A stretch of DNA of 64,000 bases from Moniliella sp. 'wahieum'. Taxonomy: Eukaryota. Below the pieces are notes generated by a model. The model did no database searches, had not been told where the DNA came from, and saw nothing but the letters and a program-made list of their open reading frames with translations. The DNA is taken from assembly GCA_003971905.1 (NCBI GenBank), contig RSEE01000144.1, forward strand, positions 62,001 to 126,000, read 5' to 3'. A program made the position numbers and the translations under genes. How positions within the stretch are numbered: position 1 is the first letter of the stretch; every line of letters starts with the position of its first letter. Shown in pieces: positions 45,619 through 53,900 of the stretch.

Positions 45619-46477
45619 GAATGCTATGTTACTGTCAGTCCGATCGACATCTGCCACCACGGTAGATCTCGTCTGGGGAGTCATGACCCAGCACTGGGAG
45701 ATGCACTTTGAGGCACAGGCTGCTATGAAGAGAGGCAGTTGGCATGTCGAGGCCGGCTTGGTGCCTGCTTCCAAGGCGAGCGAGCCCGGGCTAATTATGG
45801 CAGAATGTAAGGAAGTACCAGATGCGATACCGATGGGTGCCAGGAAAGGTGGTCGGGATGAAGGGGAAGGGTCATTGGTTGCTATGTAAACTGGTGCCGT
45901 CGTTGACGGAGGCGGACAGCATGGTATGATGACTGAGCGAACGGCGGAGGCGGGAGTGGAAGTGGGAAGAAAGAGAATGTGAATCGTCGGGCAACACAAC
46001 AGGCTGTGGGTCTTGATGGACAAGGGATGTCGAGGGCAACGGTATTGGGGGAAATGCGGGGTGGACGCAGTGGTGCTGCTTGGCGACAGCCCCATTGGAC
46101 ATGGGAGAGGGCGTCAAGGCGGCAGATGGGGGCTAAACCCTGGGGGATGTGCCAGCTACAAAGTATTAGGCTAGTTACTCCTGCCCACCATTACGCTCCT
46201 TGTCGACAGCCGCTGGCTTCCCCTGGACCTTGGAGAGGGCACCACCTGTCCAGTGACGCATTCAGCATGCCAGCCACCTACTTCAGCTTAACCTCAAAGC
46301 CACCGTCACTGACATCATCCTCGTTAACGTCAACGTTATCAAGTATCCCCGTCCCTTCCTTTCTTCCAGCTCATTGCATCAGCGAATGCTATTGCTTCCA
46401 TAGTGCACGCAAGTCCAGTAACCGTTGCCATTCCTTACACCGGAGAAACCCCGTTGGTCCAAGGCCTTGGCAAGCGT

Positions 46478-48244
46478 TCACAGGTCCGTCTTGGCCTCCA
46501 CCGCCCCAACCAGCTCCCGCATCTTGCCCGCTGCGAACTCCGTCACCTCGTACAGCTTGGCCTTGCCCAGTTGGTAGCCCTGAACAGCCAGCAGCGAAAC
46601 AGGATCCTGTTCGTCCATGTAATAGTACCACTGTTGTCCCAAACTCCAGGTCAGTACCCCAGCCCAGAAACAACCTCCAACACGAAGACATCTCCACGTA
46701 CCGTAATTTCCCAGGCAACCAGCGTGACCAACAGCACAGCCACAAACAAGACTATCATGTAGCAGAACATGAACCAGTACAGTTCGCGGACATCCGCTTT
46801 CTGCCGTGCCTTCCGTTTATCCTCGTCCACCATGGCCTTAATCGTAGCCTGAGAAGTGCCTTGTGCACTCACTGACGGGTCCAACGCCAGGGCCAACGCG
46901 GTGGCGCGGCGCTCCTCGCGCATCTGCTCGACCGCCTTGCGTCGAGACAACGCGCCCGGCGGCGCACCCCCAGCGCCGTACCGCTGTTGACCCACCACCG
47001 TAGTAGGAGGACTGACAAAGGAAGGGTAGTGCGACTCGCACCACACTTCGATTCGCGACAGTTCCACCCCCCACTCGACAAAGTTCAAGTCGTCGGGGCG
47101 AAGGCGGGCATGGATTTTCCGAGCATAGTCGCGGAAGATGTAGGCCACGTCACGATTGTTCGTGGCCGAAATAATGAGCTTAACGGCTTGGCCCTTGCGA
47201 ATCTTGAGGTTGCGCTTAAACACTGCCGGGTTGTCAAACAACAAGTCCAGTGTTGCAATCGCCATCACTTGCGGGATTGCGGCAAAGTTGAACACACTTT
47301 GTTCGTGCAGCAACGTTAGGTTCCAATACATATGTCACATGGCTCATTGCGTCCAGCAGCATCGTCGACAAGACGCCCATTGTCCGCTGGCCCAGTTCCC
47401 CTTCCACCGGGCGGTACTTGCCCGGTTGCGTACTCCTCCACACCCTTCGCCACCTCAGCCTGCGACGTGAACGCGCACCCGGGGCGAGACCACGCTTCGG
47501 CGGGCCAGAAGAAACGGCCTTCGTCACAGTCCTCCGCATAGTCACGGATAATGTTGGTCTTTTGAAGGTACAGACCCATGTGGTTGGACAACCCCATCTG
47601 CTGCCCCACCAATGGTGACTCCAGCCCTGAGGCCGAGAAAAGGCGGCTCAATCCTTCGCCTACAAGACCAGCGACAAAGTGACAGTACAGGTCATAGTCG
47701 GCCCATTTCTCCACCTTGAGTGTGCCCTTGGCACTGGCCAGCTCAATGTACGACGCCATCCCGCCGCCCATCTTGGCCGTCATGTCGGCAATCACTACTT
47801 GGTACTTCTCCTCCAGCAAGCCAAACTCGCCAATGATCTTGTCAAACTCGACCAGCAGTTGGCGGTCCTTTTCGTTCGGACCGGACTCGGTGAAGGTCCA
47901 GCCGGGCTGGTACAACTTCTTGTGGAAGGAGGTGAGGAGGGGAATCTTGACCTCGGGCGCGATGGTCATGTCGTCCTCGACAGTGTCGAGTCCACGGAGA
48001 ACGAGATAGTAGATGCAGATCACGCGCGCCAGCTCGCCCTTGAGCTCCTTGATGACGGCAGAAAAGGAGCGCGAGGTGAGGTCGAGGAAGTGCCAGCATT
48101 CGCGCATCTGGTCGCGGTCCCAGCCGCTGGCTTCGGGGTTGGAGGTGATGTCGTTGAGGGGGTCATGCATGAGCTTGTACTGGAGCAGGGAGCGCAGCTC
48201 CCGGGATGGGTGAAGAGCAGCGCGAGAAGCTGGGATGCGCCCAT
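46478..48244 (-). CDS. ERG9: Squalene synthase
   Basis: TSRSFSAVIKEL, YLVLRGLDTVEDD, YCHFVAGLVGEGL, MGLYLQKTNIIRDY, FAAIPQVMAIATL, C-terminal TM segment. Intron 46631-46701 adds a last exon ending ...VEAKTDL*. Confidence 0.96.
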
Positions 48245-48969
48245 GGCGAAGACAGATGCGCGGCGGATGCGATGGGGAGGAGGTGGGGGCGCGGCGGATG
48301 TTCTGAGAGCGGGGGGCGGCAGGGCACGGGTGAGCGCACGGGACCGGTGAGCGCACAGGTGAGGCGCCCAAAGCCTGGCCCAACAACACCCAACCATGCG
48401 CGCCCCGCCCCGCTTAGCTAATGCACCCTCTGCGCTCGTCTCATATTCCCTGGGCCTTCCACTTCAAACCGCCGCTGTTGTTGTGGCACGTGAGGTCACG
48501 CCTCGGCCTGAGGCCTGCAGCCAAGCCAGACCCATTCTTCGTCGGCGCCCAGCTCGTGTCGTACGATTGCGCCCCCGCCGCCGAGATGTGGGGGAGGAGG
48601 ATGCAGACGATGCAGTAGAACGGTGGTTGGCTGTTGCATGTTACCATCCGGCTCACCGGTCTCACGGTCTGTACTCAGTAGATTCACCAAAATGTGCAGT
48701 CGTCGGAACATGAGGATGCTCTCCGACGCGTTCCGCCACCCCACCACCAGAACATGAGCGCTTCTTTTGGCACACCCAAAGCTCTCGATTTCGCCTCTTT
48801 TCTCATTCGTACCGCCCTTTCTCAAAGTTGTCTGCGCACGTTTCTGTCGTCATCTCATAGATGAGACCGATGGTGCTAACATCGTTTCGTTTACTGCTCT
48901 CAGCTCTGTACCGAATTAGCCAAAATATTGCACACAGTATTTTTTGCTACTTTTCATTAGCCCGATATA

Positions 48970-49076
48970 GGAGGCATAGCCTAGTGGTCTATGGCATCGT
49001 ATTCAAGTCATTAAGCACTTCCGCTTAAGAGTGGATGGAACTGCGACATTCGTGGGTTCGAGTCCCACTGCCTTCA
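48970..49076 (+). tRNA. tRNA with CAA (Leu) anticodon, 33-nt canonical intron (49008-49040) and short variable loop
   Basis: Acceptor GGAGGCA/TGCCTTC with A73. D-arm GCC-TAGTGGTCTAT-GGC. Anticodon stem TCGTA/TGCGA with loop TT-CAA-G|C. T-arm GTGGG-TTCGAGT-CCCAC. Confidence 0.9.
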
Positions 49077-49077
49077 C

Positions 49078-49092
49078 TTTTTAGCTTTTTTT
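49078..49092 (+). terminator. RNA polymerase III oligo-T terminator
   Basis: Runs TTTTT and TTTTTTT immediately 3' of the tRNA. Confidence 0.75.
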
Positions 49093-50181
49093 GCTCGCCA
49101 AGTATTTTTTAGCCCTGTCGTTTTTGCAGCCACGTCGTTCGTTCATACATGAGCTGCATGAGCGTAACTACCGGGGCGAGGCGGGAATGCCGCATTCTCT
49201 GGCCTCTCCGGAACTTCTAGAGGGACGAGCCGACGATGAAGCACAGGTGCGGACCTATATGGTTGTGTAATGACCCGTACATCTCGCTCCCGGGCGAGGC
49301 CAAGAAACGCTGAAGCGGCATCACGCATTGTGTGATGTGCGCGTAAAATGTTTTTCTGACGTGGTGCCCCCAACGCCATGGGGACCACCATTTTGACCAC
49401 CATTTCCACTTGCTGCTCTCGTGAGCGCGTGAGCTCTTCTAGGGCATCAATAGCAGGTAGGGACCGAGGCCGAAGCTGGGCGTTTCATGTTATCTGTGAC
49501 ATGGTCAGCATCAGGATGCATAAACGGCTGTGGTGATGATCGATAATTATCAGCGCGGGGCACACAGATAAAGATACACGTACGTCCGGAGTCACCGCCT
49601 CTTTAGGGGTTTATTTTCAGTCGCAATGGCCACAGGGCTGTTTGGGGCACTTGGGTGCGCGGGCTCTGCTGCCTACTTGCACCGCCGCTGAGGGGGGGGC
49701 TGGGCTGGGCTGGGCCAGGCCTGTCGTTACGCGTTAGGGGCATGGGGCTACCGAACTTCTGCCCCATCGCAAAACGCCGATGGCAACAGTCGTTGGACGA
49801 GTGACGTTTGACACACGTCTCTTTGACAACGATCGGCGACCCGTCTCGTTTTAATGTTGTGGTTTTGTCGGGAGTGGGACGGTGCCCAGTAACGTTCACA
49901 GCGTGGCTCAGCGGCTCAGTGGCTCAGCACTCAGATACTACTCAACGTTGAAGCATCAAGCACAACGCTGCTTGAGGTGCAACCGTCCAGTGCGCTCAGG
50001 CTGCCGAACATGATTGACGTCCGACGTACGTTGTGGGGGTCAGAGCGTCTATAAAAACCTGCCTCTCTCAGCTTTCAAGACTCGGCGCGCATCCCTTCCC
50101 CACCCACTACCCACTATAACCTTTCCCAGCAGCCTACCGCCCTTACTGTCTCCCGCTATTCATCTATTGACCCCCAACGCG

Positions 50182-50404
50182 ATGCACTCGACTTCCCGTT
50201 GCTCCCCTGTTAACGTACGCCCATCGCCCTCTGCTTCGCTCTAGTAGGCGCGGCATGTGCGGTTGAACAAGTACTAAAATCCCTCGTTCTGGCCAGATGG
50301 CTGCCCCACTGGCCTGCCACGGCTGCAGCTTCAACTTTGGCTCCAACCTGGAGCGGAAAATGTGGCAATGCATGCGGTGCGGTCACCTTCACTACGACCA
50401 ATAA
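50182..50404 (+). CDS. Putative 46-aa CxxC-x14-CxxC zinc-ribbon microprotein, two exons (not in the ORF track)
   Basis: TATAAAA at 50050 and a C-rich leader. Exon 50182-50214, intron GTACGC...ACTAAA...CAG 50215-50296, exon 50297-50404. Product MHSTSRCSPVNMAAPLACHGCSFNFGSNLERKMWQCMRCGHLHYDQ*. Confidence 0.6.
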
Positions 50405-50941
50405 GCCCTTGTGGCTTTGCTTACCGCATTCGTTGCAGATGTCTTTGTGCGTGTATGGGTATTACGCATGAGGCTCATTGACTCATCAACGCCCGCCTTG
50501 GCCAAGCTGCACCTGCCCCCTGGTCGTGGGCGTGTAGTTTTGCCGGCCAGCGTAGGACGCCTTTTTGTGCTGTGCACAACTGCCCCCCACGTCCCAAAAA
50601 CCTCCCCGATGTACTTTGGTTGGCTCTGATAAGGTTCCACCACTAATCGTACCTCGTTATGACTAGTCTGGAGGTCATCGTAGTTCGCTTTTGTTCCCCA
50701 TCATATTTCCCAACAGGTGGCAGAGGCAAACGGTCGGTAGCCTCAGATCCTTGACAGGATACGGTCCATGGGAGTATGCAGAGATGAATTGCATGGGTCG
50801 AGCCCCTGCCTCGCCCATACAGAGCGGGCAGGGACGGTATCAGACAAAATGGAGCAGACAAAAGGGAGCTTGTACGAAGAGCAATGGTGACGGCCGCCCA
50901 GGAGGCGAGGCGCAACAGAACAGAATGTTGCGCACCTAGAT

Positions 50942-53900
50942 TTACCGGCCCGATCCCTTCGCCTTGGTCATACGAATACTGGGCGCGACCAAGGGTGTCA
51001 TCGTCGCCGCAATTCGACCTGGGTTGGGACTTACATGGCCCGGCGTGGGCGCAGCGGAAGCAGGGGTGGAGCGATTGTGAGCCATGTGGGCCTTGATCAG
51101 ATGTCCGGCCGCGAGGGCTGACATGAGCGATAGTTCCCCTGCCATCACCGCGGAGGCAATGATGGCGGCGAGCCGTTGAGCGTTGGCGCCTGGCGTGGAA
51201 GGGTGCGGCCCAGCAATGCCCAGCAGCTCGAGCATCGACCTGTGGGTCCAGCACCGTCCCCCCGCCCACCGTTCCCACTTCGATGGAGGGCATGGAAACC
51301 GAGATGCGCAAGTCCCCTCGGGCGTGGCCTCCATCAAGGTCATGCAGTTGCTCGACTCGACGTTCTGCGCAGGATCTTGCCCCGTGGCAAGGTAGATGGC
51401 AGTAAGAATGTTGGCGGCATGGGCATTGAAGCCGCCAATGGAGCCGGCCATGGCCGAGCCAATCAAGTTCTTCTTCAGGTTCAAATCCACCAAAGCGGCA
51501 ACCGAGGTCTTGAGCACCGAGCTCACCACTTTGTTGGGTACCACCGCTTCGGCCACCACCGATTTGCCCCGACCTTCAATCCAATTGATCGCAGCGGGCT
51601 TCTTGTCCGTACAGTAGTTACCCGATAGGGCCAGAACCTTCATGGAGGGGAAGTGCTCGGTGGCCATCAATGTCAGCGCACGCTCAACCCCTTGGAAATC
51701 ATGTTCATGCCCATCGCATCCCCCGTCGAGGTGGCAAAGCGAATAAACAGGGTTCGACCCGCTAGCGCGGTGCGCAAACTGGCCAGTCGGGCAAAGCGGG
51801 AAGTCGAGTCAAAGGCAGCCTTGATCGTCGCCGCACCAGTGGTGGAATCGATCCATCTCTTAGCCTGCGCCGCTTCGGCCGCAGTGGGGAAATCGACGGC
51901 GGGGCCGCGCGTCATGGCGTCTTGCGTCAACACGGTTGTCACGCCCCCTCCCGCATTCAGCGCCTTGCACCCACGCGAAGTGGATGCAACCAGAGTACCT
52001 TCCGTCGTGGCCATCGGGATTGGCGTAAGTTGGCCGTCAATGGTAAGAGGACCCGCAATGCCGAGCGGCAAAGGAAGGTAGCCCACAACATTTTCACAGC
52101 ATGCGCCCATCACTTGCGCATAGTTATAGTTCTTAAATGGCAACTTGCCCGTCTCCAGCGTTTTGGTCAAGCTGGCACGCGAAACAAGCGCACGGCGGAC
52201 ACGAACAGCACGCTCGGGGTCTTGAAGTACCTTCTCCAACGCGTAAGCAGGAATCTTTCCCCGCTGGGCAAGTAACACTACTTCCTCGTCCGCAAGGTAG
52301 AGCACACCGGCGCCATTGTCGTACACCTCCAATACTTCCTCGAACGAACGGATCTGCGAAGCGTCCACGCCCGCCGTGGGAGGTGTAGGATCTTCTCCCT
52401 CCGGCACAATCAGCGCAGGGGGGCGGCATAAATGTCACCGTGGGAGCGGAGGGCGGGAAGGGTTGGCATTGGATGAGTTGGAACGGGACGATTTGGCGAT
52501 GCGGGACTCGGCTTCATCCAAATGAGCCCAGCATACGAGCAGCGGCAAAAGCAGCGGCACCCATAGCGTTACCTCGGGCAATAGCTGCGTTGCCTTGAGC
52601 AATGCCTCGGAGCAGGTACGCGTTGAGAAAGATGCTCACTGCCATCGCGATCGAAAGCCACTTGGAAATAAGAGGGTCACCAACAATTGAGGTCCATTCA
52701 GTCATCAGGCTACCCAAGACCTCTAGCGACTGGTGGCGCGAAAGCAAGCCTGTCGATCCGCGCGAGCTGTTAGTCGAGAAGGAAGGATGAACTGAATGAG
52801 TTGCCGAGGACGATGAGGCGATCGACACTGACGTCAGGGAGGGGAATTGCTGCTCATATGCCTCGGCCAATGTCTTGGCAAGTTCAGCTTTCTCGTCCGA
52901 CACCTGGTTGGTCAGGAGTAATCGATCACCGAAAGGAAAACCGGGTCATGGATCTGCAAGCGGGCGCCAGTGGGATGGGAACGAGCAAACCGCTCGAGCG
53001 CTGGCGCAAGTGCCGGCGAGGAAGGGGTTAAGGACAAGTTGAACTGTGTCGCTGACGGAAGTAGCTGGTACGGATCGTTCACGGTAGCGCTCGGGGACGA
53101 AGGTAGAGGCAACTTCGGACGTGGCAGCACGCAAGTAGCGAGTGCGAGAAGCCTGCGTTGTCATGGTACCAAGTAGGTTGAGGCTGTGTAGCGTGATGAA
53201 GGAAGCAATCAACAAGATTTTGAGCCGGCCCACGGGTTATTTTTAGAGTTGGAGCCAACCAGGCGGTGCCAGAGCCCACGGACCCGACGGGACCGAGAAT
53301 GCTGCCGGTGACGCAGCTGGGCTGACAGCCCAGCCAAAGGAGGGGCAGCATAGTTGAAGGAGTGATCGAGATGGAAGATACACGACTGCTTACTGCGCTA
53401 TCGGCACCCTTGATTGTAGGGGTAACCGAGCCGGACGTCGTAGCGCTTGCTACGCCGCCGCTGGTGGGCGCGGCTTCCTTGTTAACGGCCGATGCGGCTG
53501 GGAGGGAAGCGTGGCGGCGCTTACGCAAGATCCGGATCCGCAGTACCTCAACAATAACGGTCAGGATGCCAGTGTAAAACGTGTGGAGAAGAATGGCATC
53601 GAAGAACAGGATCAGTGCCGCGAGCTGGCAAAATTCATGCAGGCCACTAGGAGCAATGCACGAGCCCGCAAGCAGCAAGGCCAACTCGATCGCATAGTCA
53701 CGAACGATTTCTTGGCCAACACTGTCATATGCACCCACCAACACGTCACGGGCAGCCAGCGGACGGGGAAGCTCCCACTCGAGATCGGGATTTTCGCGCA
53801 AGCGGGCAGTGAGGGCCCGAACAAAGGCATCCTCATTCGACTTGGGTGTATCGGCGGAGTTCCCATTGAGGGCCGGCTTTCCCTCGCTAGCTCCTACCGA

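Follow-up and report, generated by a model that had tools for sequence, protein, structure and literature searches.

A probable lineage-restricted zinc-ribbon microprotein gene beside HMG1 in a smut-related fungus

The window analyzed here, a 64-kb stretch of genomic DNA from a smut-related fungus, contains on its plus strand an unannotated two-exon gene for a four-cysteine peptide of about 46 residues, and this is probably a real, lineage-restricted zinc-ribbon microprotein gene with no known relatives. Comparison of its copies shows the anatomy of the gene and the conservation of its product at the protein level, including selection on the four cysteines and on a few non-polar residues. Judged from these features, the gene is very likely to be expressed, the peptide, if expressed, is likely to bind a metal, and, if it folds, a protein-binding role is slightly favored. 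The best explanation overall, with a probability of about 0.45, is a stand-alone zinc-ribbon microprotein which would act by binding to another protein.

The Locus and Its Copies

The assembly searched comprises 69.5 Mb in 223 contigs. We infer a hybrid genome, in which there are at least two copies of each of two diverged chromosome sets. The gene next to the microgene, which from its sequence we take to be HMG1 (HMG-CoA reductase), is found on the window contig, in a close copy on contig C140, at five contig ends and in two more distant copies on C5 and C27. The close second copy of the locus is 94% identical in DNA, and the catalytic region of the distant HMG1 copies shows 78-82% identity; the identity at third codon positions between the chromosome sets is 53% in HMG1 and 75% in RPL4. 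The order of tRNA gene, interval, HMG1 and RPL4 is kept on C5 and C27. The tRNA gene is 95% identical in these two contigs and, over the part that aligns, fully identical in C140, so it is no artefact of the assembly; it was the sole Rfam match on 48400-51000, and ARAGORN, which gave no gene in the window, missed it.

Two further observations concern this region. Three contigs with 99% identity (C146, C93 and C66; L021-L023) start or end at the identical base, window 50421 onward, just past the microgene stop, and the shared break point suggests a redundant haplotig assembly. At 50781-50890, 50-160 bases past the HMG1 stop, lie two short blocks which are conserved from one chromosome set to the other, unlike the remainder of the interval; this stretch has a folding z of -1.84 on the minus strand and is a possible 3' UTR element.

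Structure of the Gene

A promoter element, a start, splice signals and a stop are all present in order at the microgene (Table 1), which is the arrangement of a protein-coding gene. The initial annotation had described a TATA box, a pyrimidine-rich leader, an ATG, an 82-nt phase-0 GT-AG intron and a second exon, and each of these was found exactly where it had been placed. The two CxxC knuckles 14 residues apart, with the W-x-C-x-x-C-G pattern, were likewise read correctly: the spacing in exon 2 is CxxC-x14-CxxC, and the Trp stands two residues ahead of the third Cys. However, three of the four copies have an extra codon (Thr) past the first knuckle which is absent from the window copy, so the true spacing may be 15 and the true length 47 residues.

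Table 1. Positions of the microgene, its synteny markers and other four-cysteine small genes. Positions are those of the window unless a contig or locus is given.
Feature	Position	Strand	Basis or remark
tRNA gene, upstream synteny marker, outside the microgene	48970..49076	+	Rfam RF00005, 48.6 bits
TATA box (TATAAAA)	50050..50056	+	read from the sequence
5' leader, C/T-rich, without ATG	50057..50181	+	true of 4/4 copies as far as the first ATG
coding exon 1, 33 nt, 11 codons, probable true start (ATG at 50182)	50182..50214	+	M-x-S-T...P-V-N kept in the divergent set
phase-0 intron, 82 nt, GTACGC donor, CAG acceptor (predicted splicing)	50215..50296	+	position common to 4/4 copies
branch-like site TACTAAA in the intron	50272-50278	+	sequence
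coding exon 2, 35 codons plus TAA (50402-50404), opening with the second ATG	50297..50404	+	both knuckles kept in C5 and C27
Cys codons of exon 2; Trp codon	50315, 50324, 50369, 50378; 50363	+	sequence
HMG1 3' coding frame, convergent with the microgene, synteny marker	50942..51808	-	ORF list
C26/C147 microgene	L103:1476-1604 = G000:C26:659683-659811; L114 = C147:72756-72884	- (L103)	pattern search
CxxC-x10-CxxC-G small gene behind a TATA box	L078:1465-1650 (C10), L077 (C7), L143 (C47), L145 (C54)		four copies
41-codon CxxC-x12-CxxC-G-H frame, right after a GTACGC...CAG intron-like stretch	L079:1430-1552 (G000:C6:758129-758251)		one copy found

The distance from TATA to the first ATG is 131-132 nt in the close pair and 91-92 nt, with a TATA repeat, in the divergent copies. 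The intron measures 79-89 nt across all four copies, with a GTACGY donor and a YAG which abuts the second ATG; if it is retained, the exon-1 frame stops within the intron (ORF 50014-50244). The exon-2 frame is the sole small ORF of the form M..CxxC..CxxC..stop in the 64-kb window, and when the window was simulated 150 times with an order-3 Markov model, the chance rate was 0.073 such ORFs per window, and no simulated window (0/150) had one with an upstream TATA.

Lengths of 46 and of 35 residues, the latter from the second ATG, had been left as alternatives. The longer form of 46-47 residues is favored because exon 1 is in frame in two of the four copies, the longer version of each haplotype pair; in addition, its start is the first ATG after the TATA box in all four copies and has a purine at -3. 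Within this form, 47 residues are possible as well as 46.

Four close CTCAG units lie at 49903-49934, upstream of the TATA box, and similar CTCAG/CTGAG clusters occur upstream of two other microgenes. The word CTCAG has 120 occurrences in the window, and the second chromosome set lacks the cluster.

Conservation between the Chromosome Sets

C5 and C27 carry the microgene at the syntenic position, between the tRNA gene and HMG1, and most of the flanking DNA is unalignable there. The TATA box, exon 1, the position of the intron, both ATGs, the four cysteines and the W-x-CxxC-G knuckle are all kept. In both copies the leader is free of ATG and the ATG has A at -3; exon 1, which has 36 nt (33 nt in the window), reads M-x-S-T...P-V-N and is followed at the same codon boundary by a GTACGT donor and an intron of 86-89 bases, with TAG directly ahead of the second ATG. 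Exon 2 retains A-P-L-x-C-x2-C, then T-N-F, then W-x-C-x2-C-G, and its stop comes 15 codons past that Gly. The knuckle spacing, 14 in the window, is 15 and 17 in the other copies when these are read across deletions. The conservation of the four cysteines, which the initial annotation had wished to see checked in related genomes, was therefore looked for within this genome, and all four of them with the same intron stand at the syntenic place in C5 and C27.

At the DNA level, 4 of the 38 60-nt segments over the interval beat 20 shuffles, namely exon 1 (colinear), one non-colinear segment and two in the HMG1 3' region; the segment at 50181 scores 38, and the maximum was 28 in 20 shuffles. The 25 gap-free anchored codons include 10 identical ones, 6 with silent differences and 9 with residue changes. 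Silent differences are found in 5 of the 8 conserved degenerate codons of exon 2, which is about as saturated as HMG1, and in only 1 of 5 in exon 1; on this ratio exon 1 may owe its conservation to splicing or translation control and not to its peptide.

The pattern CxxC..W-x-CxxC-G gave 47 matches on both strands of 69.5 Mb and 6 in a reversed control, so about 0.0005 matches are expected by chance in the 1.55-kb interval. More modest support comes from protein alignment: when the exon-2 peptide was compared with six frames of the interval, the best single frame was equalled by 22/500 and 30/500 shuffles, and the best two frames summed were equalled by 11/500 and 4/500. Conservation at the protein level in a diverged syntenic copy is a mark of a protein-coding microgene.

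Relation to Known Zinc Ribbons

In phmmer, a search of 1.84 billion representatives gave three matches at E<=0.001, all of them repeats in long unrelated proteins, and no homologue. Word-indexed searches with the 45-residue frame and with the six-row alignment gave no homologue, the best match in the ESM Atlas (0.89) was to unnamed clusters and serves as a lead only, and JGI metagenomes gave no match to a degenerate DNA pattern of the conserved N-terminal half. This absence of outside homologues is weak evidence, because the nearest named relatives of the neighboring squalene synthase, in the Ustilaginomycotina, are only 70-74% identical (unnamed sequences up to 84%) and genes so short are rarely called. 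Within the genome, the W-x-CxxC-G-H pattern has 15 matches as against 6 in the control, with the upstream knuckle only at the microgene locus, and the four matches to CxxC-x2-T-N-F are the two homeologues and two judged to be chance; a look-alike on C11/C110 was rejected, as it has no start codon and is antisense to another frame. A literature search, which covered mainly open-access papers, found no description of the microprotein family. The family had not been recognized in the initial annotation, and no match to a Pfam family attains its cut-off.

When a family profile of six unaltered sequence pieces was run against solved structures, it matched the zinc ribbons of eL43, IFT122 (E 3e-3), eL40 (3e-3) and rubredoxin (0.02), and also TnpB and eL37. 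Two CxxC knuckles 10-20 residues apart, which mark a zinc ribbon at the level of the fold, are present. The AlphaFold2 model is of low confidence (mean pLDDT 59, pTM 0.28), and Foldseek with this model gave no matches. The best solved match is eL43 (L37ae; 9nri_Bb, profile E 8e-6), which has A-P-x-x-C-x2-C, a similar spacing and W-x-C-x2-C-G-H in common with the microprotein. However, eL43 has about 90 residues as against 46 (46-59 across the copies, ending in a stop), and the microprotein evolves fast, is without the basic N-terminal arm and the C-terminal helix of eL43, and in the second set is not basic. With half the length, no such Pfam match and a similarity confined to the ribbon, it is not counted as a member of eL43/L37ae.

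Rubredoxin and the rubrerythrin C-terminal domain (PF21349) share with the microprotein the W-x-C-x2-C-G knuckle (E 0.11, below the cut-off), but in the microprotein the matching knuckle comes second, the spacing is short (14) and there is no second C-P-x-C-G; the score of 12.3 bits against a Pfam cut-off of 26.5 speaks against membership. For RanBP2-type/NZF fingers, passages of one paper give the signature W-x-C-x(2,4)-C-x3-N-x6-C-x2-C (PMC12383448). The microprotein resembles them as a small four-cysteine module with C-x2-C-x3-N in three of the four microgene copies; however, it has Leu and not Trp before the first Cys (L-x-C), its Trp sits before the second knuckle, and the third Cys follows the Asn after 10-13 residues instead of 6. 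By the signature in those passages it is not such a finger, and PF00641 is not among the Pfam matches. The T-F/Y dipeptide after the second Cys, described in passages of another paper as the ubiquitin motif of NZF (PMC12805371), is replaced by S-F in the window copy and Y-E in the second set.

By analogy, the nearest concept is that of the one-domain zinc-finger microproteins of Haloferax volcanii with C(P)XCG motifs, without membership by motif or homology. For these proteins, phenotypes are reported in 12 of 16 deletion mutants (PMC6562870), and zinc was found in 9 of 14 purified proteins, 5 of 14 being zinc-free (PMC11241148). The likeness lies in a size below 70 residues, a single domain, paired CxxC knuckles and several unrelated genes per genome. 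The fungal gene, however, is eukaryotic and predicted to be spliced, and no homology was found; its size would fit, but Gly follows only the second knuckle and neither knuckle has Pro.

Proposed Function

The microgene would be transcribed by RNA polymerase II, and the spliced mRNA would be read from the first ATG into a soluble peptide of 46-47 residues; the product of the second chromosome set would have about 59. A shorter form could arise by leaky scanning, from the second ATG, which is also conserved. In a single zinc-ribbon fold, the two CxxC knuckles would hold one metal ion, most likely zinc. This stand-alone module would then dock on a partner protein, as an adaptor or a competitor, by way of the conserved non-polar positions, which are A-P-L ahead of the first knuckle, T-N-F behind it and W ahead of the second. 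Protein binding is the most likely role because the peptide has neither a catalytic domain nor a signal peptide and its net charge is not conserved. N-terminal lipidation was set aside, since Gly2 occurs in the second set only. Against the protein-binding reading stand the seven deletion-type events (2.5 expected) with three of the four copies not open, the absence of an outside homologue, of a Pfam family and of a partner among the findings, and the 5 of 14 purified Haloferax C(P)XCG microproteins which are reported to be zinc-free (PMC11241148).

A real microprotein for metal or redox handling, that is, an iron or zinc carrier of the rubredoxin or Dph3 kind, or else a small buffer or sensor of metals, is an unlikely alternative which nevertheless draws on the weak match of the second knuckle to rubredoxin and rubrerythrin knuckles, on the extra exon-1 Cys in both sets and on the stand-alone size. 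However, the knuckles are 14-17 residues apart, far below the spacing in rubredoxin, which is roughly 29 residues. The extra cysteines are at differing positions, and the total of five and six in the two sets, exon 1 included, is too few for metal storage or a metallothionein; moreover, the locus has no metal-related neighbor.

Binding of RNA or DNA, in the manner of the eL43/eL40-type ribosomal ribbons and the RanBP2-type fingers, is less probable again. The best solved matches are indeed ribosomal zinc ribbons, and C-x2-C-x3-N-F resembles the RanBP2-type fingers, of which the full signature is absent. But the net charge is slightly positive in the window copy (K+R 4, D+E 2) and slightly negative in the second set (K+R 4, D+E 5), and the basic residues are unaligned between the sets; a net charge which is not kept argues against nucleic-acid binding.

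The position of the gene between ERG9 and HMG1 had implied a link with ERG9, which proved weak. ERG9 adjoins the tRNA gene in the window (46400-48400) but is about 171 kb away on C5 (G000:C5:377780-378308), and by this comparison the difference is a rearrangement between the chromosome sets. A sterol gene cluster was therefore rejected; a tie of the protein-binding microprotein to sterol synthesis is unsupported, the adjacency to HMG1 being part of ordinary synteny.

Frameshifts and the Assembly

The frame reads through only in the window copy, and the other three of the four copies have frameshifts. Deletion-type events number three in C140, two in C5 and one in C27, and the window lacks the one codon present in the other three. 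Single-base differences put the second knuckle out of frame in C5 and C27 alike; because they fall at different positions, a few bases from one another, each copy supplies what the other lacks. These are seven events in about 640 coding bases, where the rate in pooled coding regions would predict 2.5 (Poisson p 0.014), and the gap rates vary widely among coding regions (0.8 to 11.8 per kb per copy). Over the four copies, 1.6 kb of HMG1 coding sequence has 25 single-copy deletions, no single-copy insertions and 7 unassigned two-copy events; with single-copy indels which are deletions only, frameshifts are the usual error of the assembly.

If the frameshifts in the three copies were real, the microgene would be a once-functional gene now decaying, with the window haplotype alone still open. 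This reading, which ranks below those already discussed and has a small chance of being right, agrees with an indel density in the frame (about 11 per kb per copy) near that of the flanks (6-9) and above that of HMG1 (2.5-4.5). Against it, the breaks differ in place from copy to copy and the copies of each pair complement one another, the deletion-only errors also affect HMG1, another coding region has 11.8 gaps per kb per copy, and the conservation is long-term, over a near-saturated branch. Finally, the locus might give a spliced transcript which runs towards the HMG1 3' end and is non-coding or regulatory, with an incidental reading frame; this would suit the convergent arrangement and an exon 1 and donor region kept mostly at the DNA level, but it is very improbable with exon 2 conserved as protein with silent changes and poorly as DNA, and with the motif expected at the syntenic place by chance at only about 0.0005.

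Other Small Genes and Significance

At least three further candidate loci were found by pattern in the genome (Table 1); for one pattern they come from the first 100 of 302 matches, so this is no census. The C26/C147 microgene has the same architecture as that in the window: its first exon has five codons, its phase-0 GTACGT intron spans 121-123 bases, and its second exon encodes 43 residues with CxxC-x19-CxxC and W-x-CxxC-G. The second exon is identical in both copies, and its peptide is only slightly similar to that of the window microgene. It sits between what we take to be RIM1-like and CCC1-like genes, and a search next to the nearer RIM1-like homeologues, on C43/C51, did not find it. In the CxxC-x10-CxxC gene the frame is 94-97% identical among the four copies, and the upstream kilobase is 78-89% identical.

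A distant look-alike of the latter gene is present on C63 (L146:1420-1683, minus strand). Two-knuckle patterns with W-x-CxxC-G which are broken by frameshifts occur at L085/L111 (C10:667532, C47:158957) and, behind two TATA boxes and GTAAGT, at L088/L112 (C13:920196, C69:294832), and these are candidates only.

A wider proposal, which is doubtful, is that the microgene belongs to a dispersed and so far unrecognized class of stand-alone four-cysteine proteins in smut-related fungi, the eukaryotic counterpart of the haloarchaeal one-domain microproteins. Such fast-evolving peptides would tune larger complexes by mimicking or blocking a zinc-ribbon docking surface, and the one in the window, whose gene is tail-to-tail with that for HMG-CoA reductase, could have a part in the control of sterols or isoprenoids.

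Fungal microproteins have been catalogued mostly in yeasts. In the passages searched of a 2024 review, neither 'zinc' nor 'basidiomyc' occurs (PMC11413187). The present case illustrates that a hybrid genome can act as its own comparative test, and the result for the gene in the window raises the odds for the other microgenes. If validated as a class, one-domain zinc ribbons in basidiomycetes would modestly enlarge the set of regulatory tools known from fungi, in a way that is easy to test.
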